Assembly (NCBI RefSeq): GCF_003334305.1
Contig: NZ_QOWS01000001.1
Length of the DNA: 64,000 bases
DNA from: Escherichia coli
Lineage (GTDB): Bacteria > Pseudomonadota > Gammaproteobacteria > Enterobacterales > Enterobacteriaceae
Direction: 5' to 3' (one strand)
Every line of letters starts with the position of its first letter. Within the stretch, counting starts at the first letter, position 1. Of the stretch, positions 25,686 to 41,210 are shown in pieces. The notes below the pieces were generated by a model that saw only the letters and a list, made by a program, of their open reading frames with translations, made no database searches and had not been told where the DNA came from. The translations under genes were made by a program, and so were the position numbers.

Positions 25686-27344
<1,659 letters not shown>

Positions 27345-27345
27345 T

Positions 27346-27478
27346 GATGTGCCACATCCGGCATGGTATGCCGGATGTGGCGTATGCTGATAAGACGCGC
27401 CAGCGTCGCATCAGGCACCGGCTCGGGCGTTAGATGTCGGATGCGGCGTGACCGCCTTATTCGGCCTACGGGGTGCCG
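27346..27478. repeat. Cluster of three REP-type palindromic units between convergent mqo and eco
   Basis: GCCACATCCGGCATGGTATGCCGGATGTGGC (perfect palindrome), then ...GATAAGACGCGCCAGCGTCGCATCAGG..., then GATGTCGGATGCGGCGTGACCGCCTTATTCGGCCTAC. Confidence 0.8.
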
Positions 27479-27492
27479 CACTTCACAGCATT

Positions 27493-27981
27493 TTAGCGAA
27501 CTACCGCGTTGTCAATTTTCTCTTCCGCCTTCCAGACGCGGTACTTCACATCTACATTGTCTGGCGTATACACCACGATCGGCAGCTTGCTGTTGTAACG
27601 CAGCATTCCAGCATCGCCCAGATACGCGGTGACAAATTTCTTCTCTTTCTTGCCATCCGGGCAGGCCATCATCGTCGAAACCGGGGAACTGACTTTATCA
27701 AAGACATAATAATCATAGCCCCAGCCTTCCAGCGTTTTGTTTTCCAGCTTCCCGCCGAGACGATGCAAATTGCAATCGACTTCCAGCGTCTGACCGATTA
27801 ACAGTTCTACTTTCAGGGTAGATTCATCTTCTTGCGGGGTTAACTGAATCACCTGACGCTTCATCCCTTTTTCAGCTTGTGGATAAGGCGCGATTTTTTC
27901 CAGTGGCTGGACGCTTTCTGCCGCCCAGGCGGAAGTGGTAGCGAAAGCGGCAAACAATACTGCAGGTAGAATGGTCTTCAT
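27493..27981 (-). CDS. eco: Ecotin, periplasmic serine-protease inhibitor
   Basis: Start taken at [20 protein letters not shown] within ORF 27493-28002, giving 162 aa. Confidence 0.93.
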
Positions 27982-28259
27982 TTTTTTGCTTTCCTTCTTC
28001 ATTTATAGGTTTTCACCGATGATGTCGCTGAAGGTTAACATATTCATCAGATTTATTAATTTGCTTTATGAATAACTTAAAGAACATTCAGACAATTTTA
28101 CCTGCTCTTTTAGTGTTAAATTCTAATGAGAGAGCAAACCAGCAGAAATATCTCTGGTGAATTAATCGCTATATAAATATATTTATAACCATTTGAAATG
28201 TGAGCAAAAGCCCGTTTTTGCCACGCTTCCCGCCACTCTTTTGATCCTGCTACAGGTTT

Positions 28260-28275
28260 TACCCCGATCGGGGTA
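28260..28275. promoter_or_regulatory. Perfect 16-bp palindrome in the napF promoter (NarP/NarL 7-2-7-type site)
   Basis: TACCCCGATCGGGGTA about 115 bp upstream of the napF start; matches the heptamer-pair arrangement I recall for NarP/NarL. Confidence 0.6.
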
Positions 28276-28388
28276 TGCATCTTTGACACATCCTTTAATA
28301 TCTTAGCGGCTATAAAAATGGCTTATTAATTATGCGGTTTATTTGGTCGCTCTCAATTTTCAGAGCGCGTTAATGATGGAAGGTCAAT

Positions 28389-28883
28389 GTGAAGATTGAT
28401 GCATCCCGTCGGGGCATACTCACTGGTCGCTGGCGCAAAGCCAGTAACGGTATCCGTCCGCCCTGGTCCGGTGATGAATCTCATTTTCTGACCCATTGCA
28501 CCCGCTGCGACGCCTGTATTAATGCTTGTGAAAACAACATTCTGCAACGCGGCGCGGGCGGCTATCCGAGCGTTAATTTCAAAAATAACGAGTGCAGCTT
28601 CTGTTACGACTGCGCGCAGGCTTGCCCCGAATCGCTATTTTCTCCGCGCCACACCAGGGCCTGGGATTTGCAGTTCACCATTGGGGACGCGTGCCTGGCG
28701 TATCAGTCTGTTGAATGCCGCCGCTGTCAGGATAGCTGTGAGCCAATGGCAATTATCTTTCGCCCGACGCTCTCCGGGATCTACCAGCCGCAACTTAATA
28801 GCCAACTTTGCAACGGATGTGGAGCATGTGCAGCCAGCTGTCCGGTATCAGCCATAACTGCGGAGTATCTCCATGCACACTAA
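28389..28883 (+). CDS. napF: NapF ferredoxin-type protein
   Basis: 164-aa ORF with GTG start; several CxxCxxCxxxCP clusters. Confidence 0.93.
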   Translation: MKIDASRRGILTGRWRKASNGIRPPWSGDESHFLTHCTRCDACINACENNILQRGAGGYPSVNFKNNECSFCYDCAQACPESLFSPRHTRAWDLQFTIGDACLAYQSVECRRCQDSCEPMAIIFRPTLSGIYQPQLNSQLCNGCGACAASCPVSAITAEYLHAH

Positions 28884-29136
28884 CTGGCAAGTTTGCAGCC
28901 TGGTCGTGCAGGCCAAAAGCGAACGAATTTCAGACATCAGCACCCAACTGAACGCCTTTCCCGGCTGTGAAGTTGCTGTCAGCGACGCGCCGAGCGGTCA
29001 GTTGATTGTGGTGGTGGAAGCAGAAGACAGCGAAACGCTGATCCAAACCATTGAGTCAGTACGCAACGTAGAGGGCGTGCTGGCGGTGTCGCTGGTTTAT
29101 CACCAGCAGGAAGAGCAAGGTGAGGAAACACCATGA
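28873..29136 (+). CDS. napD: NapD chaperone for NapA
   Basis: 87-aa ORF overlapping napF end and napA start. Confidence 0.93.
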
Positions 29137-31619
29137 AACTCAGTCGTCGTAGCTTTATGAAAGCTAACGCCGTTGCGGCCGCTGCGGCGGCTGCCGGTCT
29201 CAGCGTGCCGGGCGTTGCCCGCGCCGTTGTTGGTCAGCAGGAAGCCATCAAATGGGATAAAGCGCCGTGCCGTTTCTGCGGTACTGGTTGCGGCGTTCTG
29301 GTCGGAACGCAGCAGGGGCGTGTGGTGGCCTGTCAGGGCGACCCGGACGCACCGGTTAACCGTAGCCTGAACTGCATTAAGGGCTATTTCCTGCCCAAGA
29401 TCATGTACGGTAAAGACCGTTTGACGCAGCCGCTGTTGCGTATGAAAAACGGTAAATATGACAAAGAAGGCGAATTTACCCCAATCACCTGGGATCAGGC
29501 CTTCGATGTGATGGAAGAGAAATTCAAAACCGCCCTGAAAGAAAAAGGACCGGAATCGATCGGTATGTTCGGTTCTGGTCAGTGGACTATCTGGGAAGGT
29601 TATGCCGCGTCCAAGCTGTTCAAAGCGGGCTTCCGTTCGAACAACATCGACCCGAACGCACGTCACTGTATGGCGTCGGCAGTAGTTGGCTTTATGCGTA
29701 CCTTTGGTATGGATGAGCCGATGGGCTGCTATGACGACATCGAGCAGGCTGACGCGTTTGTGCTGTGGGGCGCTAACATGGCGGAGATGCACCCGATCCT
29801 CTGGTCACGCATCACTAACCGTCGTCTCTCTAACCAGAACGTCACCGTGGCGGTGCTTTCTACCTACCAGCATCGTAGCTTCGAGCTGGCGGATAACGGC
29901 ATCATCTTTACGCCGCAATCTGACCTGGTGATCCTGAACTACATCGCCAACTATATCATTCAAAACAATGCGATAAATCAGGACTTCTTCAGCAAGCACG
30001 TTAACCTGCGCAAAGGGGCGACGGACATCGGCTACGGTTTACGTCCGACCCATCCGCTGGAAAAAGCAGCGAAGAATCCGGGTTCTGACGCCTCCGAACC
30101 GATGAGCTTTGAAGATTACAAAGCCTTCGTTGCTGAGTATACGCTGGAAAAAACCGCTGAAATGACCGGCGTGCCGAAAGACCAGTTAGAACAACTGGCG
30201 CAGCTGTATGCCGATCCGAACAAGAAAGTCATCTCCTACTGGACGATGGGCTTCAACCAGCATACCCGTGGTGTGTGGGCCAACAACCTGGTCTACAACC
30301 TGCACCTGCTGACCGGCAAAATTTCCCAGCCGGGTTGCGGTCCGTTCTCCCTGACCGGGCAGCCTTCTGCGTGTGGTACTGCGCGTGAAGTGGGCACCTT
30401 TGCTCACCGTCTGCCTGCGGACATGGTGGTGACTAACGAGAAACATCGTGATATCTGCGAGAAGAAGTGGAATATCCCGGGCGGCACCATTCCGGCAAAA
30501 ATCGGTCTGCACGCGGTGGCACAAGACCGTGCGCTGAAAGACGGCAAGCTGAATGTTTACTGGACCATGTGTACCAACAACATGCAGGCCGGGCCGAACA
30601 TCAATGAAGAGCGTATGCCAGGCTGGCGCGATCCGCGCAACTTCATCATCGTCTCCGATCCGTATCCGACAGTCAGTGCGCTGGCCGCCGACTTGATCCT
30701 GCCGACCGCAATGTGGGTAGAGAAAGAGGGCGCTTACGGTAACGCCGAACGCCGTACTCAGTTCTGGCGTCAGCAGGTACAGGCGCCAGGCGAAGCGAAA
30801 TCGGATCTCTGGCAGTTAGTCCAGTTCTCCCGCCGCTTCAAAACTGAAGAAGTATGGCCGGAAGAGCTGCTGGCGAAGAAACCGGAACTGCGTGGCAAAA
30901 CGCTGTACGAAGTTCTGTATGCCACCCCCGAAGTGAGCAAATTCCCGGTATCCGAACTGGCGGAAGATCAGCTGAACGATGAATCCCGCGAGCTGGGCTT
31001 CTATCTGCAAAAAGGGCTGTTCGAAGAGTACGCATGGTTTGGTCGCGGTCACGGTCACGATCTCGCGCCGTTCGATGACTACCACAAAGCGCGCGGTCTG
31101 CGCTGGCCGGTGGTGAACGGTAAAGAAACACAGTGGCGTTACAGCGAAGGTAACGACCCGTACGTGAAAGCGGGCGAAGGCTATAAGTTCTACGGTAAAC
31201 CGGATGGCAAAGCGGTGATCTTCGCACTGCCGTTCGAACCGGCGGCGGAAGCACCGGATGAAGAGTACGACCTGTGGCTCTCTACCGGACGCGTTCTGGA
31301 GCACTGGCACACCGGCAGTATGACTCGCCGTGTGCCGGAACTGCACCGCGCCTTCCCGGAAGCGGTCTTGTTTATTCACCCGCTGGATGCGAAAGCGCGC
31401 GATCTGCGCCGTGGCGACAAAGTGAAAGTGGTTTCTCGCCGTGGCGAAGTGATCTCGATTGTTGAAACGCGCGGTCGTAACCGTCCGCCACAGGGCCTGG
31501 TGTACATGCCGTTCTTCGACGCCGCACAGCTGGTTAACAAACTGACGCTGGATGCGACCGATCCGCTCTCGAAAGAGACGGACTTCAAGAAGTGCGCAGT
31601 CAAACTGGAGAAGGTGTAA
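29133..31619 (+). CDS. napA: Periplasmic nitrate reductase catalytic subunit NapA
   Basis: 828-aa ORF; twin-arginine signal SRRSFMK...ARA and N-terminal Cys cluster CRFCGTGCG. Confidence 0.97.
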
Positions 31620-31625
31620 GCCATT

Positions 31626-32321
31626 ATGTCCCGGTCAGCGAAACCTCAAAATGGTCGCCGCCGCTTTCTGCGCGATGTCGTTCGCACAGCAGGCGGGCTG
31701 GCTGCCGTGGGTGTGGCGCTGGGGTTACAACAGCAAACCGCACGCGCATCTGGCGTGCGGTTGCGCCCGCCCGGAGCCATAAACGAGAACGCCTTTGCCA
31801 GTGCCTGTGTGCGTTGCGGTCAGTGTGTTCAGGCTTGCCCTTACGACACCTTAAAACTGGCGACGCTGGCCTCTGGTCTGTCGGCGGGCACGCCATATTT
31901 TGTCGCACGGGATATTCCTTGCGAAATGTGTGAGGACATTCCGTGCGCCAAAGTGTGCCCAAGCGGTGCGCTGGATCGTGAGATTGAATCGATCGACGAC
32001 GCGCGGATGGGGCTGGCGGTACTGGTGGACCAGGAAAACTGTCTCAACTTTCAGGGGCTGCGCTGCGATGTTTGTTATCGCGAATGCCCGAAAATTGATG
32101 AGGCCATCACCCTGGAGCTGGAGCGCAACACGCGTACCGGTAAGCACGCCCGCTTTCTGCCGACGGTTCACAGCGACGCCTGTACCGGTTGCGGTAAGTG
32201 CGAAAAAGTATGCGTGCTGGAACAACCGGCAATCAAGGTGTTACCGCTGTCACTGGCGAAAGGGGAGTTAGGTCACCATTACCGCTTCGGTTGGCTGGAG
32301 GGGAACAATGGCAAATCGTAA
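31626..32321 (+). CDS. napG: NapG ferredoxin-type protein
   Basis: 231-aa ORF; Tat-like RRRFLRD motif and multiple 4Fe-4S Cys clusters. Confidence 0.93.
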
Positions 32322-33171
32322 ACGTGACGCCGGGCGCGAGGCGCTGGAGAAAAAAGGCTGGTGGCGCAGTCACCGTTGGCTGGTGTTACGTCGCCTTTGT
32401 CAGTTCTTCGTGCTGGGGATGTTTTTGAGCGGTCCATGGTTTGGTGTGTGGATCTTGCACGGCAACTACAGCAGTAGCCTGTTATTCGACACCGTTCCGC
32501 TGACCGATCCGCTGATGACGCTGCAAAGTCTTGCCAGTGGTCATCTGCCTGCCACGGTGGCGTTGACCGGTGCGGTGATTATCACCGTGCTCTACGCCCT
32601 GGCGGGAAAGCGATTATTTTGCAGCTGGGTCTGCCCGCTGAACCCGATTACCGACTTAGCGAACTGGTTACGCAGGCGCTTTGACCTCAATCAGTCTGCG
32701 ACGATCCCTCGCCACATTCGCTACGTGCTGTTGGTGGTCATTCTGCTGGGATCGGCCTTAACTGGCACGCTCATCTGGGAATGGATCAACCCCGTATCTC
32801 TGATGGGGCGCAGCCTGGTAATGGGCTTCGGCAGCGGCGCGCTGCTTATTCTCGCGCTGTTTTTATTTGATCTACTGGTCGTTGAACACGGCTGGTGCGG
32901 GCACATTTGTCCGGTTGGCGCGCTGTATGGCGTGCTGGGTAGCAAAGGTGTGATTACCGTTGCGGCCACCGATCGGCAGAAATGTAACCGCTGTATGGAT
33001 TGTTTTCATGTTTGCCCGGAACCGCATGTGCTACGTGCCCCGGTGCTGGATGAACAAAGCCCGGTGCAGGTCACCAGCCGCGATTGCATGACGTGCGGTC
33101 GCTGCGTGGATGTCTGTTCTGAGGATGTATTTACAATAACTACACGATGGAGTTCGGGAGCGAAATCATGA
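32308..33171 (+). CDS. napH: NapH membrane-bound ferredoxin-type protein
   Basis: 287-aa ORF; transmembrane segments plus C-terminal CxxCxxCxxxCP motifs. Confidence 0.93.
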
Positions 33172-33617
33172 AAAGCCATGACCTGAAGAAAGCGCTGTGT
33201 CAATGGACGGCGATGCTGGCCCTGGTGGTAAGCGGCGCGGTTTGGGCGGCTAATGGCGTCGATTTTAGCCAGTCGCCGGAAGTATCCGGGACACAGGAAG
33301 GGGCCATTCGGATGCCAAAAGAGCAGGAACGGATGCCGCTGAACTATGTGAATCAGCCGCCAATGATCCCGCATAGCGTTGAAGGTTATCAGGTAACGAC
33401 CAATACCAACCGCTGCTTGCAGTGCCACGGTGTCGAAAGTTATCGCACCACTGGCGCGCCGCGTATCAGTCCTACTCACTTTATGGACAGCGACGGCAAA
33501 GTGGGCGCGGAAGTGGCTCCGCGTCGTTATTTCTGTCTGCAATGTCACGTACCGCAGGCCGATACCGCGCCAATCGTGGGGAATACCTTTACCCCATCAA
33601 AAGGTTACGGGAAATAA
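33168..33617 (+). CDS. napB: NapB diheme cytochrome c
   Basis: Start taken at [10 protein letters not shown] within ORF 33147-33617, giving 149 aa; two CxxCH motifs (CLQCH, CLQCH). Confidence 0.93.
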   Translation: MKSHDLKKALCQWTAMLALVVSGAVWAANGVDFSQSPEVSGTQEGAIRMPKEQERMPLNYVNQPPMIPHSVEGYQVTTNTNRCLQCHGVESYRTTGAPRISPTHFMDSDGKVGAEVAPRRYFCLQCHVPQADTAPIVGNTFTPSKGYGK

Positions 33618-33626
33618 GAGGTTATT

Positions 33627-34229
33627 ATGGGAAATTCTGACCGTAAGCCTGGTCTGATTAAGCGCCTGTGGAAATGGTGGCGTACCCCCAGCCGTCTGGC
33701 GCTGGGGACGCTGCTGTTGATCGGTTTTGTTGGCGGCATCGTCTTCTGGGGTGGCTTTAACACCGGGATGGAAAAAGCCAATACCGAAGAGTTCTGCATT
33801 AGCTGCCACGAAATGCGCAACACGGTGTATCAGGAATACATGGATTCCGTGCACTACAACAACCGTAGCGGCGTCCGTGCGACCTGTCCGGATTGTCACG
33901 TTCCGCACGAGTTTGTGCCGAAGATGATACGCAAGCTCAAAGCAAGTAAAGAGCTGTATGGTAAAATTTTTGGCGTTATTGACACGCCGCAGAAATTTGA
34001 AGCTCATCGTCTGACGATGGCACAGAATGAGTGGCGGCGCATGAAGGACAATAACTCGCAGGAGTGCCGTAACTGTCACAACTTCGAGTATATGGATACA
34101 ACCGCCCAGAAATCGGTTGCCGCGAAGATGCATGACCAGGCGGTGAAAGATGGGCAAACCTGTATTGATTGCCATAAAGGGATAGCGCACAAGCTGCCCG
34201 ATATGCGTGAAGTCGAGCCAGGTTTTTAA
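33627..34229 (+). CDS. napC: NapC tetraheme cytochrome c
   Basis: 200-aa ORF; N-terminal membrane anchor and four CxxCH motifs. Confidence 0.95.
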   Translation: MGNSDRKPGLIKRLWKWWRTPSRLALGTLLLIGFVGGIVFWGGFNTGMEKANTEEFCISCHEMRNTVYQEYMDSVHYNNRSGVRATCPDCHVPHEFVPKMIRKLKASKELYGKIFGVIDTPQKFEAHRLTMAQNEWRRMKDNNSQECRNCHNFEYMDTTAQKSVAAKMHDQAVKDGQTCIDCHKGIAHKLPDMREVEPGF

Positions 34230-34241
34230 CAGGGTTATTGC

Positions 34242-34865
34242 GTGGGTATGCTTGAAGCCAGAGAGTTACTTTGTGAGCGGGATGAACGAACCTTATTTAG
34301 TGGCTTGTCATTTACGCTGAACGCAGGAGAGTGGGTACAAATCACCGGTAGCAACGGCGCGGGGAAGACAACGCTTCTCCGTTTGCTGACTGGGTTGTCT
34401 CGCCCTGACGCTGGCGAGGTTCTCTGGCAAGGGCAGCCCTTGCATCAGGTACGCGACAGCTACCATCAAAACCTGTTATGGATAGGCCATCAGCCGGGGA
34501 TCAAAACCCGGCTGACGGCGTTAGAAAATCTGCACTTTTATCATCGCGATGGCGATGCCGCACAATGTCTGGAAGCCCTGGCGCAGGCCGGGCTTGCCGG
34601 ATTCGAAGATATTCCGGTAAATCAACTTTCTGCCGGGCAACAACGCCGCGTCGCTTTAGCGCGTCTGTGGCTGACCCGTGCCACGTTATGGATCCTCGAC
34701 GAGCCTTTTACCGCGATTGACGTTAACGGCGTCGATCGTCTGACCCAGCGTATGGCGCAGCATACGGAGCAGGGGGGGATTGTGATTCTGACTACCCACC
34801 AGCCGCTCAACGTTGCTGAAAGTAAAATTCGCCGCATTTCACTGACGCAAACGGGGGCCGCATGA
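34242..34865 (+). CDS. ccmA: CcmA, cytochrome c maturation ABC ATPase
   Basis: 207-aa ORF, GTG start; Walker [10 protein letters not shown]. Confidence 0.93.
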
Positions 34866-35524
34866 TGTTCTGGCGCATTTTCCGTCTTGAGCTGCGCGTA
34901 GCGTTTCGCCATAGCGCCGAAATCGCCAACCCGCTGTGGTTCTTCCTGATTGTAATTACCCTTTTTCCGCTCAGTATCGGTCCGGAGCCGCAACTGCTGG
35001 CGCGTATTGCACCGGGCATTATCTGGGTTGCTGCGCTGCTTTCATCCTTGCTGGCGCTGGAACGACTGTTCCGTGACGATTTGCAGGACGGCAGTCTTGA
35101 ACAATTGATGTTGTTGCCGTTACCCTTGCCCGCCGTTGTGCTGGCGAAGGTGATGGCGCACTGGATGGTAACCGGTCTGCCGTTACTCATCCTTTCGCCA
35201 CTGGTAGCAATGCTACTGGGAATGGATGTTTATGGCTGGCAAGTGATGGCGCTGACGCTGCTGCTGGGAACGCCTACGCTTGGCTTTCTCGGTGCACCGG
35301 GTGTGGCGTTGACTGTGGGACTTAAGCGCGGTGGTGTGCTGCTCAGCATACTGGTGTTACCGCTGACTATCCCATTACTCATCTTTGCCACCGCCGCGAT
35401 GGACGCGGCTTCCATGCATTTGCCCGTTGACGGGTATCTGGCAATTTTAGGCGCGTTGCTGGCAGGCACCGCGACATTAAGTCCTTTTGCGACGGCGGCA
35501 GCGTTACGAATCAGCATTCAATAA
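34862..35524 (+). CDS. ccmB: CcmB, heme exporter permease
   Basis: 220-aa hydrophobic ORF; start overlaps ccmA stop. Confidence 0.93.
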
Positions 35525-35565
35525 CGCTGGATTACTGATTTTTGTTCGAGTCTGGTATCGAAACT

Positions 35566-36303
35566 ATGTGGAAAACACTGCATCAACTGGCGATCCCACC
35601 ACGGCTGTATCAAATCTGTGGCTGGTTTATACCGTGGCTGGCAATTGCCAGTGTGGTCGTGCTTACCGTCGGCTGGATCTGGGGATTCGGCTTTGCTCCG
35701 GCTGATTATCAGCAGGGAAATAGCTACCGCATTATCTACCTGCATGTGCCTGCGGCGATCTGGTCGATGGGCATTTATGCATCAATGGCGGTGGCGGCTT
35801 TTATTGGCCTTGTCTGGCAGATGAAAATGGCCAACCTGGCGGTGGCGGCGATGGCCCCCATTGGTGCCGTGTTTACCTTTATTGCCCTGGTTACCGGCTC
35901 TGCATGGGGAAAACCGATGTGGGGCACCTGGTGGGTATGGGATGCACGTCTGACTTCTGAACTGGTGCTGCTGTTTTTGTATGTGGGTGTGATTGCCCTG
36001 TGGCACGCCTTCGACGACCGCCGTCTGGCGGGCCGTGCGGCAGGTATCCTGGTGCTGATTGGCGTGGTGAATCTGCCGATTATTCATTACTCCGTGGAGT
36101 GGTGGAACACCCTGCATCAGGGATCAACGCGGATGCAGCAAAGTATCGATCCGGCGATGCGTTCGCCGCTGCGCTGGTCGATTTTTGGCTTCCTGCTGCT
36201 GTCTGCCACGCTGACGCTGATGCGGATGCGTAATTTGATTTTGCTGATGGAAAAACGCCGTCCGTGGGTGAGTGAACTGATACTGAAAAGAGGCCGTAAA
36301 TGA
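35566..36303 (+). CDS. ccmC: CcmC, heme exporter
   Basis: Start taken at MWKTLHQLAIPPRLYQ within ORF 35542-36303, giving 245 aa; WGxxWxWD tryptophan-rich motif present. Confidence 0.92.
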   Translation: MWKTLHQLAIPPRLYQICGWFIPWLAIASVVVLTVGWIWGFGFAPADYQQGNSYRIIYLHVPAAIWSMGIYASMAVAAFIGLVWQMKMANLAVAAMAPIGAVFTFIALVTGSAWGKPMWGTWWVWDARLTSELVLLFLYVGVIALWHAFDDRRLAGRAAGILVLIGVVNLPIIHYSVEWWNTLHQGSTRMQQSIDPAMRSPLRWSIFGFLLLSATLTLMRMRNLILLMEKRRPWVSELILKRGRK

Positions 36304-36509
36304 CCCCTGCATTTGCTTCCTGGAATGAATTTTTCGCAATGGGCGGTTACGCCTTTTTTGTCTGGCTGGCGGTGGTGATGACCGTTATTCCGCTGGTGGT
36401 TTTGGTCGTGCACTCGGTGATGCAGCATCGCGCAATTCTGCGTGGTGTGGCGCAACAGCGGGCGCGTGAGGCGCGTTTACGTGCTGCGCAACAGCAGGAG
36501 GCTGCATGA
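36300..36509 (+). CDS. ccmD: CcmD
   Basis: 69-aa ORF overlapping ccmC stop and ccmE start. Confidence 0.9.
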
Positions 36510-36985
36510 ATATTCGCCGTAAAAACCGCTTGTGGATTGCCTGTGCCGTGTTGGCAGGGCTGGCGCTGACTATCGGTCTGGTGCTATATGCGCTGCGCTC
36601 GAATATCGATCTCTTTTATACGCCGGGGGAAATTCTCTACGGCAAGCGTGAAACTCAGCAAATGCCGGAAGTCGGGCAGCGTCTGCGCGTTGGCGGGATG
36701 GTGATGCCGGGTAGTGTGCAGCGCGATCCCAATTCGCTGAAAGTGACCTTCACTATTTACGATGCTGAAGGCTCAGTGGATGTCTCTTACCAAGGCATTT
36801 TGCCGGATCTGTTCCGTGAAGGGCAGGGCGTTGTGGTGCAGGGCGAGCTGGAAAAAGGCAATCATATCCTCGCGAAAGAAGTGCTGGCGAAACACGACGA
36901 AAACTACACGCCGCCAGAAGTTGAGAAAGCGATGGAAGCTAACCACCGTCGCCCGGCGAGTGTTTATAAGGACCCAGCATCATGA
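36506..36985 (+). CDS. ccmE: CcmE heme chaperone
   Basis: 159-aa ORF with N-terminal membrane anchor. Confidence 0.93.
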
Positions 36986-38925
36986 TGCCGGAAATTGGAA
37001 ACGGGCTGCTGTGCCTGGCGTTAGGGATTGCGCTGCTGCTGTCCGTGTATCCGCTATGGGGCGTGGCGCGCGGAGATGCGCGCATGATGGCGTCTTCCCG
37101 CTTGTTTGCCTGGCTGCTGTTTATGTCTGTGGCTGGCGCATTTCTGGTGCTGGTCAATGCTTTCGTGGTCAACGACTTTACCGTCACCTATGTTGCCAGC
37201 AACTCCAATACCCAGCTTCCGGTGTGGTATCGCGTGGCGGCTACCTGGGGCGCGCATGAAGGCTCGCTCCTGCTGTGGGTGCTGCTGATGAGCGGCTGGA
37301 CCTTTGCGGTGGCGATTTTTAGTCAGCGTATTCCGCTGGATATTGTGGCCCGCGTACTGGCGATAATGGGGATGGTCAGCGTCGGCTTTTTGCTGTTCAT
37401 TCTCTTTACCTCTAACCCATTCTCACGCACGCTGCCGAACTTCCCGATTGAAGGGCGCGATCTTAACCCGCTGTTACAGGATCCGGGGCTGATCTTCCAT
37501 CCGCCTCTGCTTTATATGGGGTACGTGGGTTTCTCGGTGGCGTTTGCTTTTGCCATTGCTTCTTTGTTGTGCGGGCGTCTGGACAGCACTTATGCGCGTT
37601 TTACTCGTCCGTGGACGCTGGCGGCGTGGATCTTCTTGACGCTCGGCATTGTGCTCGGTTCCGCATGGGCCTATTACGAACTCGGCTGGGGCGGCTGGTG
37701 GTTCTGGGATCCGGTAGAAAACGCCTCGTTTATGCCGTGGCTGGTGGGGACTGCGCTGATGCACTCACTGGCGGTCACTGAACAACGCGCCAGCTTCAAA
37801 GCGTGGACATTACTGCTGGCAATCAGTGCCTTCTCGTTGTGTCTGCTGGGGACTTTCCTGGTGCGTTCCGGCGTGCTGGTATCGGTACACGCGTTTGCCT
37901 CTGATCCGGCACGCGGTATGTTTATCCTCGCCTTTATGGTACTGGTGATTGGTGGTTCGCTGCTGCTGTTTGCCGCGCGTGGACACAAAGTTCGCTCACG
38001 CGTAAACAATGCGCTGTGGTCGCGGGAATCTCTGCTGTTAGCGAACAACGTTTTGCTGGTCGCCGCGATGCTGGTGGTATTACTGGGGACGCTGCTGCCG
38101 CTGGTGCACAAGCAACTGGGACTGGGCAGTATTTCGATTGGCGAACCGTTCTTCAACACCATGTTTACCTGGCTGATGGTGCCGTTTGCGCTGCTGCTTG
38201 GTGTCGGTCCTCTGGTGCGCTGGGGGCGCGATCGCCCACGTAAAATCCGCAATTTATTGATTATCGCCTTCATCTCAACGCTGGTGCTGTCGCTGCTGCT
38301 GCCGTGGCTGTTCGAAAGCAAAGTTGTGGCGATGACGGTGCTCGGCCTGGCAATGGCCTGCTGGATTGCTGTGCTGGCAATTGCGGAAGCTGCGCTGCGT
38401 ATTTCACGTGGCACGAAAACCACCTTCAGTTATTGGGGAATGGTGGCGGCTCACCTGGGGCTGGCAGTGACAATTGTTGGCATTGCTTTTAGCCAGAACT
38501 ATAGCGTTGAGCGTGATGTGCGCATGAAGTCCGGCGATAGCGTCGATATTCATGAATATCGCTTCACCTTCCGTGATGTCAAAGAGGTGACTGGCCCGAA
38601 CTGGCGTGGCGGTGTGGCGACTATCGGCGTAACGCGCGATGGCAAGCCGGAAACGGTGCTGTATGCGGAAAAACGTTATTACAACACTGCCGGGTCGATG
38701 ATGACCGAAGCGGCAATTGACGGCGGCATCACGCGTGACCTGTACGCCGCGCTCGGTGAAGAGCTGGAAAACGGCGCGTGGGCCGTGCGTCTTTACTACA
38801 AACCATTTGTTCGCTGGATTTGGGCGGGCGGGCTGATGATGGCGTTGGGCGGACTACTGTGTCTGTTTGATCCTCGCTATCGTAAGCGCGTGAGTCCGCA
38901 AAAAACTGCGCCGGAGGCCGTATGA
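36982..38925 (+). CDS. ccmF: CcmF, cytochrome c heme lyase subunit
   Basis: 647-aa polytopic membrane ORF with tryptophan-rich WGGWWFWD motif. Confidence 0.95.
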
Positions 38926-39479
38926 AGCGCAAAGTATTGTTAATTCCGTTGATTATCTTCCTGGCGATTGCCGCGGCGCTGCTGTGGCAGCTGGCGCGTA
39001 ATGCCGAAGGGGATGATCCGACCAATCTGGAATCGGCGCTCATTGGCAAGCCTGTGCCGAAGTTTCGTCTCGAATCACTGGACAATCCGGGGCAGTTTTA
39101 TCAGGCGGATGTGCTGACTCAGGGCAAACCAGTGCTGCTTAACGTCTGGGCGACCTGGTGTCCGACCTGCCGTGCGGAACATCAATATCTGAATCAGCTT
39201 TCAGCGCAGGGCATTCGCGTGGTCGGCATGAACTATAAAGACGATCGCCAGAAGGCAATCAGCTGGCTGAAAGAGCTGGGCAATCCTTACGCGCTAAGCC
39301 TGTTTGATGGCGACGGCATGTTAGGGCTGGATCTCGGTGTCTATGGCGCGCCAGAAACCTTCCTTATTGACGGCAACGGTATCATTCGCTATCGCCATGC
39401 GGGCGATCTCAATCCTCGCGTCTGGGAAGAAGAGATCAAGCCGCTGTGGGAGAAATACAGTAAGGAGGCCGCACAATGA
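38922..39479 (+). CDS. ccmG: CcmG/DsbE thiol:disulfide oxidoreductase
   Basis: 185-aa ORF with thioredoxin motif WCPTC. Confidence 0.95.
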   Translation: MKRKVLLIPLIIFLAIAAALLWQLARNAEGDDPTNLESALIGKPVPKFRLESLDNPGQFYQADVLTQGKPVLLNVWATWCPTCRAEHQYLNQLSAQGIRVVGMNYKDDRQKAISWLKELGNPYALSLFDGDGMLGLDLGVYGAPETFLIDGNGIIRYRHAGDLNPRVWEEEIKPLWEKYSKEAAQ

Positions 39480-40528
39480 GGTTTTTATTGGGCGTGCTGA
39501 TGCTGATGATCTCCGGCTCAGCACTGGCGACCATCGACGTGTTGCAGTTTAAAGATGAAGCACAGGAACAACAGTTCCGTCAGCTCACTGAAGAACTGCG
39601 CTGCCCGAAATGCCAGAACAACAGCATTGCCGATTCCAACTCGATGATTGCCACCGACCTGCGTCAGAAAGTGTATGAACTGATGCAGGAAGGTAAAAGT
39701 AAAAAAGAGATTGTCGATTATATGGTGGCGCGTTACGGCAACTTCGTCACTTACGATCCGCCGTTAACGCCGCTGACCGTGCTGCTGTGGGTGCTTCCGG
39801 TAGTGGCTATTGGCATTGGCGGTTGGGTCATATACGCCCGCTCGCGGCGTCGGGTACGCGTAGTGCCGGAAGCGTTTCCTGAACAAAGCGTGCAGGAAGG
39901 TAAGCGTGCCGGATATATTGTTTATTTGCCGGGCATTGTGGTGGCGTTAATTGTGGCTGGCGTCAGCTACTACCAGACCGGAAATTATCAGCAGGTGAAA
40001 ATCTGGCAGCAGGCCACGGCACAGGCTCCGGCGTTGCTGGACAGGGCGCTGGATCCGAAAGCCGATCCGCTCAACGAAGAAGAGATGTCGCGTCTTGCGC
40101 TGGGGATGCGTACTCAACTGCAAAAAAATCCGGGAGATATAGAAGGCTGGATTATGTTGGGCCGCGTTGGCATGGCGCTGGGTAACGCTAGTATCGCCAC
40201 CGATGCATACGCTACTGCGTATCGCCTCGATCCGAAAAACAGCGATGCCGCACTGGGTTATGCTGAAGCGTTGACACGTTCATCTGATCCCAACGACAAC
40301 CGCCTCGGTGGTGAACTGCTGCGCCAGTTGGTGAGAAGCGACCACAGCAATATCCGTGTGTTAAGCATGTATGCGTTTAATGCCTTTGAGCAGCAGCGAT
40401 TTGGCGAAGCCGTTGCCGCGTGGGAGATGATGTTGAAACTCTTACCTGCCAACGATACTCGCCGTGCGGTGATTGAACGTAGTATCGCGCAGGCGATGCA
40501 ACATTTGTCGCCGCAGGAGAGTAAATAA
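39476..40528 (+). CDS. ccmH: CcmH
   Basis: 350-aa ORF with CPKC motif; last gene of the nap-ccm cluster. Confidence 0.93.
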   Translation: MRFLLGVLMLMISGSALATIDVLQFKDEAQEQQFRQLTEELRCPKCQNNSIADSNSMIATDLRQKVYELMQEGKSKKEIVDYMVARYGNFVTYDPPLTPLTVLLWVLPVVAIGIGGWVIYARSRRRVRVVPEAFPEQSVQEGKRAGYIVYLPGIVVALIVAGVSYYQTGNYQQVKIWQQATAQAPALLDRALDPKADPLNEEEMSRLALGMRTQLQKNPGDIEGWIMLGRVGMALGNASIATDAYATAYRLDPKNSDAALGYAEALTRSSDPNDNRLGGELLRQLVRSDHSNIRVLSMYAFNAFEQQRFGEAVAAWEMMLKLLPANDTRRAVIERSIAQAMQHLSPQESK

Positions 40529-40565
40529 AAAGAGGCCCGATGGTGATGCCATCGGGCTATTTTTA
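40524..40565. terminator. Bidirectional rho-independent terminator between convergent ccmH and narP
   Basis: A-tract, GCCCGATGG-TGATG-CCATCGGGC hairpin, then T-tract; T-tract overlaps the narP stop codon. Confidence 0.8.
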
Positions 40566-41210
40566 TTGTGCCCCGCGTTGTTGCAGGAACAGAATGGTGG
40601 CTGCCACGCGTGAGCGGACATTGAGTTTGCGCAGCAGATTGCGAATATGTACTTTTACTGTCTGCTCTGAAATATTCAACACCGAGGCAATCTGTTTATT
40701 TGACAGCCCCTGTGCCAGCTCGTGCAGAACATCCAGCTCGCGCTCCGTCAGCACGCTGAAGGGATCTTCTTCCGCGCCAAACATTTCACGTTCACGTAAG
40801 TACTGATTGACGCGTTCGCTAAAGACTTTGCTGCCTTTCGCTCCAGCACGAATTGCTTCCAGCAATACTTCCGGGTCGCTGTCTTTCAACAGATAACCGT
40901 CTGCGCCTGCGTCTATCAGTGCAAAGACATCGCTGGAGGCATCTGATACGGTCAGGATAATAATTTGCGCGGTAACGCCATCCCTGCGCAAGGCATTGAG
41001 GGTATCCAGGCCACTCATACCTTTCATATTGAGATCCAGCAAGATCACGTCGATATCCAGTCTATTCGCCAGATCGATCGCGCTCGCGCCGTCGCCCGCT
41101 TCGGCGACCACTTCAAAGCCAGGATCAAGCTCCAGTAACTGACGAACACCGCGTCGCATAAGTGGATGATCATCCACAATCATCACCTGAAAAGGCGTTG
41201 CTTCAGGCAT
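40563..41210 (-). CDS. narP: Nitrate/nitrite response regulator NarP
   Basis: Start taken at MPEATPFQVMIVDDHPLMRRG within ORF 40563-41240, giving 215 aa; receiver plus LuxR-type helix-turn-helix. Confidence 0.93.
   Translation of the reverse strand: MPEATPFQVMIVDDHPLMRRGVRQLLELDPGFEVVAEAGDGASAIDLANRLDIDVILLDLNMKGMSGLDTLNALRRDGVTAQIIILTVSDASSDVFALIDAGADGYLLKDSDPEVLLEAIRAGAKGSKVFSERVNQYLREREMFGAEEDPFSVLTERELDVLHELAQGLSNKQIASVLNISEQTVKVHIRNLLRKLNVRSRVAATILFLQQRGAQ

Follow-up and report, generated by a model that had tools for sequence, protein, structure and literature searches.

Gene overlaps confined to modules and a likely transcriptional link between nap and ccm in the napFDAGHBC–ccmABCDEFGH locus of Escherichia coli

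We analyzed a stretch of 64,000 nucleotides from Escherichia coli (NCBI RefSeq assembly GCF_003334305.1, contig NZ_QOWS01000001.1; referred to as the window), in which positions 28389–40528 carry 15 co-directional intact open reading frames (ORFs) on the plus strand. These ORFs make up the canonical core-genome locus napFDAGHBC–ccmABCDEFGH (aeg-46.5) of E. coli, which encodes the periplasmic nitrate reductase (Nap) and the cytochrome c maturation (Ccm) machinery. Taking the evidence as a whole, we consider it highly probable that the block is this canonical locus, that it forms one transcription unit from napF to ccmH, that its overlapping genes lie within modules whose members would be coupled by reinitiation of translation, and that the link between nap and ccm is transcriptional only.

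Identity of the 15-gene block

The ORF list for positions 27000–42000 contained no internal stop in any of the 15 genes. Protein identity was judged by the curated cutoffs of NCBIfam for families and by Pfam for CcmH. Fourteen of the 15 translations scored above the cutoff of the matching NCBIfam family, mostly end to end, and CcmH was recognized by its Pfam CcmH and CcmI-like tetratricopeptide repeat (TPR) domains as the E. coli-type CcmH–CcmI fusion (Table 1). A motif search found all of the expected catalytic and cofactor motifs in the 15 proteins, and an Fe-S motif search detected the ferredoxin cysteine clusters of NapF, NapG and NapH. The nap half has the composition of an E. coli-type NapFDAGHBC system, with a twin-arginine NapA, a diheme NapB, a tetraheme NapC, the accessory proteins NapD, NapF, NapG and NapH, and the gene order F-D-A-G-H-B-C. 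The ccm half comprises the eight genes for the System I cytochrome c maturation apparatus, including the CcmAB ATP-binding cassette (ABC) module, the WWD proteins CcmC and CcmF, CcmD, CcmE with its heme-binding His130, and the thiol-reduction branch formed by CcmG and CcmH. An original prediction, made from the letters and the ORF translations of the window without database searches, had given the same gene identities, order and single strand, and NCBIfam, Pfam and the RefSeq coding sequences agree with it.

When positions 28000–41000 of the window were compared by megablast with all complete E. coli genomes, many chromosomes matched at 100% over the full 13 kb, and 5418 of the 5426 genomes covered at least 80% of the query (8 fell below). 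On the identical chromosome of strain H15 (locus L001; window position = locus position + 24999), the RefSeq coding sequences are 15 genes with the same boundaries, with eco and yojO upstream of napF and the convergent narP downstream. The aeg-46.5 locus of E. coli K-12 (b2208–b2194) likewise has the same 15 genes, in the same order, with the same 14 intergenic distances and the flanks eco, yojO, narP and yejO. Nothing of substance differs from K-12; the 100% sequence matches are to other E. coli strains. Self-BLAST revealed no second copy of the nap–ccm block within the window.

Overlapping junctions are confined to modules

The distances at the 14 junctions from napF to ccmH were read from the sequence (Table 1). 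Ten of the junctions overlap, eight of them by ATGA, one by 11 nt and one by 14 nt, and the overlaps are confined to the modules NapF-D-A, NapG-H-B, CcmA-B and CcmC-D-E-F-G-H. Identical distances have been listed for K-12 b2194–b2208 by Huber et al. 2023 (PMC10666635, supplementary file 3); the overlaps are genuine but already published for K-12, in agreement with the earlier description of them as known biology. The nine overlaps named in that description were all correct, but it omitted the ATGA of napH/napB, so that the count is ten of 14 rather than nine.

The choice of start codon affects two junctions. An in-frame ATG at 33147, upstream of the curated napB start at 33168, would give a 25-nt overlap with napH, and a TTG at 35542 provides an alternative upstream start for ccmC. 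It is nevertheless extremely improbable that wrongly assigned start codons have produced the overlaps as artefacts of annotation: NapD, NapA, NapB, NapC, CcmE and CcmG match their equivalog families end to end, Shine–Dalgarno (SD) sequences are properly spaced before the annotated starts, and both the curated K-12 list and Salmonella use the same starts.

Genome-wide, 707 of 2987 co-directional E. coli pairs are spaced by −8 to +6 nt (PMC10666635). In the block, 9 of the 14 junctions fall in this range (eight at −4 and one at +6), which is more than expected from all co-directional E. coli pairs (binomial P = 1.4 × 10⁻³); the five junctions outside it are the overlaps of 11 and 14 nt and the gaps of 9, 12 and 41 nt. 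A second, E. coli-specific peak of spacing occurs at +9 to +12 nt, where 194 of 201 pairs are polycistronic (PMC10666635), and the napB/napC (+9) and napC/ccmA (+12) gaps are both inside this peak.

Termination–reinitiation within modules

At all ten overlapped starts, the final 20 nt of the preceding gene pair with the anti-SD sequence at −5.8 to −12.1 kcal/mol, compared with a background mean of −2.7. In the block as a whole, the SD pairing energy reaches at least −5.8 kcal/mol at 13 of the 15 starts, equivalent to the best 10% of random positions. The sequence features of termination–reinitiation are therefore found both in the distances, with nine junctions between −8 and +6 nt, and in the SDs located in the upstream 3′ end at the ten overlapped starts. 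By this mechanism a ribosome ending the upstream gene would restart at the overlapping AUG, the SD contained in the upstream 3′ end would aid the restart, and the synthesis of partner proteins would be held proportional. We infer that termination–reinitiation within the modules is a plausible mechanism, and the best-supported one.

Of five native ATGA pairs of E. coli that were assayed by Huber et al. 2019 (PMC6728339), four were shown to be coupled, the exception being bioBF. The ATGA junctions of nap and ccm resemble the coupled pairs of that study, hyfHI, astDB, ydbH/ynbE as well as menDH, in having a 4-nt ATGA overlap and an SD within the upstream gene; those four pairs were found to be coupled in reporter fusions. 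Subunits of heteromeric complexes are enriched 4.5-fold for short distances (PMC10666635). For the Ccm proteins, strict ratios have a functional reason: CcmB that is not in a complex with CcmACD has been reported to expel heme and to be toxic, and the gene order has been argued to secure their stoichiometry (PMC11868835).

The weakest SD pairing in the block was found at ccmC (−3.0 kcal/mol), followed by ccmA (−3.3 kcal/mol, a value matched by 39% of random positions). These are the only two starts of the block that combine weak SD pairing with low predicted accessibility (0.29 each), and both are at non-overlapping junctions, of which there are four. One could imagine the ccmA and ccmC junctions as step-down valves that set the Nap:Ccm and CcmAB:CcmCDEFGH ratios by inefficient reinitiation, with the ATGA overlaps locking the ratios within sub-modules. 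We regard this as quite improbable; if true, the block would be a hard-wired stoichiometry program rather than merely a compact operon.

nap and ccm are likely co-transcribed

The original prediction took the overlaps as a sign that translation of the nitrate reductase is coupled to that of its cytochrome c maturation machinery. This part did not hold, because each overlap is between two nap genes or between two ccm genes. At napC/ccmA there is neither overlap nor near-abutment, the distance being +12 nt, and ccmA has a GTG start with the weak SD and low accessibility given above. Spacings of +9 to +12 nt are typical of polycistronic E. coli pairs, and coupling efficiency is variable at +11 to +20 nt (PMC10666635). 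Since napC and ccmA do not overlap and are separated by a 12-nt spacer before a GTG start with a weak SD, translational coupling of nap with ccm is not indicated, and the link between them would be co-transcription.

A consensus scan for intrinsic-type terminators found no terminator-like site at the 12-nt napC/ccmA spacer. The RNA fold across this junction (positions 34180–34290) was no stabler than those of shuffled sequences (z = +0.79), and the spacer is without a hairpin. The original prediction had named internal terminators at the nap–ccm boundary as the finding that would speak against it; none is predicted there. Because the nap/ccm boundary is without a terminator-like structure, read-through from napF into ccm is possible: RNA polymerase starting at napF could pass into ccm, and transcription would run from the FNR/NarP-controlled napF promoter to a strong bidirectional terminator behind ccmH. 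The fold of this predicted terminator (−32.6 kcal/mol, z = −4.17) was not equaled in stability by any of 200 shuffles, and the structure can act for ccmH as well as for the convergent narP. It is the single convincing terminator of the scanned region (27400–41600), in which the total of 22 terminator-like sites was in line with that of shuffled sequences (16.5 ± 4.2). A polycistronic unit napFDAGHBCccmABCDEFGH is given in PMC10666635 (supplementary file 4) and PMC2634741, and nap and ccm have been said to "share the same operon" (PMC3893208). We conclude that nap and ccm are likely co-transcribed.

A weaker ccmA promoter was reportedly mapped inside napC by Tanapongpipat et al. in 1998. It could be argued that nap and ccm are functionally separate, that ccm is expressed mainly from this promoter of its own, and that the block is a historical juxtaposition in enterobacteria. 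The napC/ccmA junction, with its lack of overlap, GTG start and weak SD, would agree with such a separation, as would the ccm operons of Xanthomonas and V. natriegens and that of a Klebsiella plasmid, which is next to torCA, none of them adjoining nap. In addition, all c-type cytochromes need Ccm, which serves them all and not just Nap (PMC3893208; PMC12285233). We nevertheless find a functional separation doubtful, considering that the 12-nt spacer is too short for a terminator and none is predicted, that the literature gives napFDAGHBC–ccmABCDEFGH as a read-through unit (PMC2634741; PMC10666635), and that the eco–nap–ccm–narP arrangement is retained in Salmonella. The two views are compatible, since both promoters can feed ccm.

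Other candidate signals were considered along the block. Inside napC, the FNR-like match TTGATTGCCATAAA (34165–34178, one mismatch) is located 64 nt upstream of ccmA. As a control site for ccm, TTGATTGCCATAAA was rejected, because it corresponds to the codons of the fourth NapC heme motif, C-I-D-C-H-K (tgt att gat tgc cat aaa). A hairpin in napB (33504–33525) was rejected as a terminator on account of its marginal fold relative to shuffles (z = −1.49) and its T-poor tail. The 41-nt ccmB/ccmC spacer had no significant structure (z = −0.48), and no RNA family was found by Rfam at gathering thresholds in 27400–41600.

Control region upstream of napF

The AT-rich control region between napF and eco (28000–28388) has a GC content of 0.40. 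It contains a perfect 16-bp palindrome of the 7-2-7 type, TACCCCGATCGGGGTA, which was assigned to NarP/NarL by its position and with the help of the literature, because the count of NarP palindrome motifs in the window was not above chance. The center of an FNR-like site, TTGATcctgCTACA, is located exactly 20 bp upstream of the center of this palindrome; with its three mismatches, the site was not picked up by a 2-mismatch FNR scan. The 20-bp spacing fits the −64.5/−44.5 regulator geometry of the napF promoter, for which the positions are −64.5, −44.5 and −133.5. Further upstream of the napF promoter, an inverted repeat, ATCGCTATATA-N-TATAAC, was read from the sequence; it is presumably a ModE site, as in the published napF control region. 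It has been stated that napF is activated by FNR and NarP and that NarL antagonizes or competes with NarP at the napF promoter (PMC9262595). The small annotated ORF yojO (28116–28289, minus strand) overlaps the ModE-like, FNR-like and NarP sites.

Conservation of the overlaps in other species

The median distances of ccm pairs are −4 or −1 nt across 195–464 species per pair, and across 147–464 species when napD/napA is included (PMC10666635; Table 1). In Salmonella enterica (locus L002, NZ_CP148876.1), the eco–napFDAGHBC–ccmABCDEFGH–narP synteny is kept and 10 of the 14 distances are identical, including all of the ccm ATGA overlaps. Salmonella differs in that napH and napB are 115 nt apart and in its spacings at napC/ccmA (20 nt) and ccmB/ccmC (51 nt). 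The insert between napH and napB (L002 5536–5650) folds better than shuffles (z = −2.4), and its napB-proximal end retains sequence equal to the 3′ end of E. coli napH. We take the insert to resemble the ERIC/IRU enterobacterial repeat. The record NZ_CP148876.1 (499 kb) is labeled as a plasmid; it carries eco–nap–ccm–narP together with effector genes of Salmonella pathogenicity island 2 (SPI-2) and looks chromosomal.

More distant ccm operons also have overlaps. In Xanthomonas sacchari (L003), ccmC–I show −4 overlaps with no nap nearby, and ccmE and ccmF are 174 nt apart, while an IncF plasmid of Klebsiella sp. (L004) carries ccmA–I with −4 and −1 overlaps, not adjoining nap. In both of these, CcmH and CcmI are encoded by separate genes, whereas E. 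coli has the fusion. In Vibrio natriegens, ccm is a separate operon, and ccm and nap are on different chromosomes (PMC10937671). The −4/−1 overlaps at ccmA/B, C/D, D/E, F/G and G/H are thus shared with the System I ccm operons of other Proteobacteria, and, as judged from these comparisons, the overlaps are a property of ccm operons generally, whatever their neighbor.

On the Klebsiella plasmid, the conjugative IncFIB plasmid pWP8-S18-ESBL-06_1, a complete ccmABCDEFGHI operon has behind it a gene for a NapC/NirT-family cytochrome and then torA (L004 5724–16228). The ccm–torA stretch, which is flanked by an insertion sequence 1 (IS1) transposase gene and a recombinase gene, appears to be a mobile module for trimethylamine N-oxide (TMAO) respiration and cytochrome maturation.

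Are the overlaps a by-product of compact operons?

The overlaps could also be a neutral by-product of compact operons, in which case ATGA would have been easily reached by drift and each gene would start independently at its own SD. Several observations tell against coupling by reinitiation and, in one case, against our placement of transcription. When only closely spaced pairs (≤20 nt apart, taken as roughly the operonic population) were used for comparison, with a baseline of 52%, the overlap density of the block was not significantly higher (P = 0.26); the block is rich in overlaps relative to the genome at large but ordinary for a tight operon of interacting proteins. The predicted accessibility of the overlapped starts was the same as background, with no clean split from the non-overlapped starts. 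Most downstream genes have a good SD of their own, and such strong internal SDs also permit independent initiation. In relatives the overlaps are individually dispensable: those of napH/napB in Salmonella (115 nt apart) and ccmE/ccmF in Xanthomonas (174 nt apart) were lost without apparent harm. One of the five E. coli ATGA pairs assayed, bioBF, was uncoupled (PMC6728339). As for transcription, a consensus scan found no sigma-70-like site on the plus strand upstream of napF or ccmA, and the total of such sites was below shuffle expectation; because of this result, the promoter was placed by the geometry of the regulator sites and from the literature.

By contrast, a neutral origin does not sit well with the −4/−1 medians found for the same ccm and napD/napA pairs across 147–464 species per pair, with the coupling of four of the five assayed E. 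coli ATGA pairs, or with the 4.5-fold enrichment of short distances among complex subunits. We therefore consider a purely neutral origin unlikely and favor termination–reinitiation within the modules of a single nap–ccm transcription unit.

Table 1. Genes, junctions and predicted signals of the nap–ccm block (window coordinates; distances in nt, negative values being overlaps; medians from PMC10666635)
Feature	Position	Strand	Description	Junction with next gene	Median across species (number of species)
ModE-like inverted repeat	28165–28189	+	Upstream of napF promoter; read from sequence
FNR-like site	28241–28254	+	3 mismatches to TTGAT-N4-ATCAA
NarP/NarL 7-2-7 site	28260–28275	+	Perfect 16-bp palindrome; assigned by position and literature
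napF	28389–28883	+	Ferredoxin-type protein, GTG start; TIGR00402 equivalog, 247 bits (cutoff 102); three CxxCxxCxxxC motifs; RefSeq coding sequence	−11 (11-nt overlap)
napD	28873–29136	+	NapA signal-peptide chaperone; NF007840 equivalog, 1–87 of 87	−4 (ATGA)	−4 (147)
napA	29133–31619	+	Molybdoenzyme catalytic subunit; TIGR01706 equivalog, 1650 bits (cutoff 930); N-terminal twin-arginine motif	+6 (gap)
napG	31626–32321	+	Ferredoxin-type subunit; NF007012 equivalog, 416 bits; RRRF motif at residue 11	−14 (14-nt overlap)
napH	32308–33171	+	Membrane quinol dehydrogenase ferredoxin subunit; NF007013 equivalog, 470 bits	−4 (ATGA, 33168–33171)
napB	33168–33617	+	Diheme cytochrome c; NF008609 equivalog, 1–149 of 149; two CXXCH; RefSeq start	+9 (gap)	+11 (135)
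napC	33627–34229	+	Tetraheme quinol dehydrogenase; NF007906 equivalog, 1–200 of 200; four CXXCH	+12 (gap, 34230–34241)
ccmA	34242–34865	+	ABC ATPase, GTG start; NF010061 equivalog, 332 bits; Walker A GSNGAGKT, LSAGQ signature	−4 (ATGA)	−4 (464)
ccmB	34862–35524	+	Heme exporter permease; TIGR01190 equivalog, 317 bits	+41 (gap)
ccmC	35566–36303	+	Heme-handling WWD protein; TIGR01191, 282 bits; WGTWWVWD motif	−4 (ATGA)	−1 (238)
ccmD	36300–36509	+	TIGR03141 equivalog	−4 (ATGA)	−4 (231)
ccmE	36506–36985	+	Heme chaperone; NF009635 equivalog, 1–158 of 159; HDENY motif with His130 (HxxxY)	−4 (ATGA)	−1
ccmF	36982–38925	+	Heme lyase; TIGR00353, 1015 bits; WGGWWFWD motif	−4 (ATGA)	−4 (380)
ccmG/dsbE	38922–39479	+	Thioredoxin-like reductant; NF011941 equivalog, 1–185 of 185; CPTC motif	−4 (ATGA)	−4 (373)
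ccmH	39476–40528	+	Pfam CcmH, residues 7–142 (2e-50); TPR_CcmH_CycH, 173–330 (2e-60); CPKC motif		ccmH/ccmI, −4 (362)
Bidirectional intrinsic terminator, predicted	40534–40558	both	6 nt past ccmH stop; 11-bp stem with 7 G-C pairs; A-tract before, T-tract after

Related sequences and the downstream flank

In complete E. coli assemblies, 5 megablast matches to the nap–ccm block are on records labeled as plasmids. The ccmF–ccmH stretch (36982–40528) has a second, partial megablast match elsewhere on the chromosome in nearly all E. coli genomes (median of 2 places per genome). The source of this match is most likely the paralogous nrfEFG, given that the NrfE model recognizes CcmF with 712 bits. 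Downstream of narP lies the autotransporter gene yejO, which the matching RefSeq record lists as a pseudogene carrying an internal stop; in the window, the yejO region contains an ORF of 788 amino acids (41530–43896).

Significance

The nap–ccm locus has been characterized since the 1990s, a genome-wide survey of gene overlaps already lists its junction distances, and nothing in the window departs from the known E. coli locus. It serves as a positive control, in that genes and junctions were accurately identified from the bare sequence. A small correction of logic results from the analysis: the overlaps argue for coupling inside the modules, not between nap and ccm. The ccm overlaps are kept across Proteobacteria, and they may merit retention when a ccm operon is refactored for the expression of c-type cytochromes.

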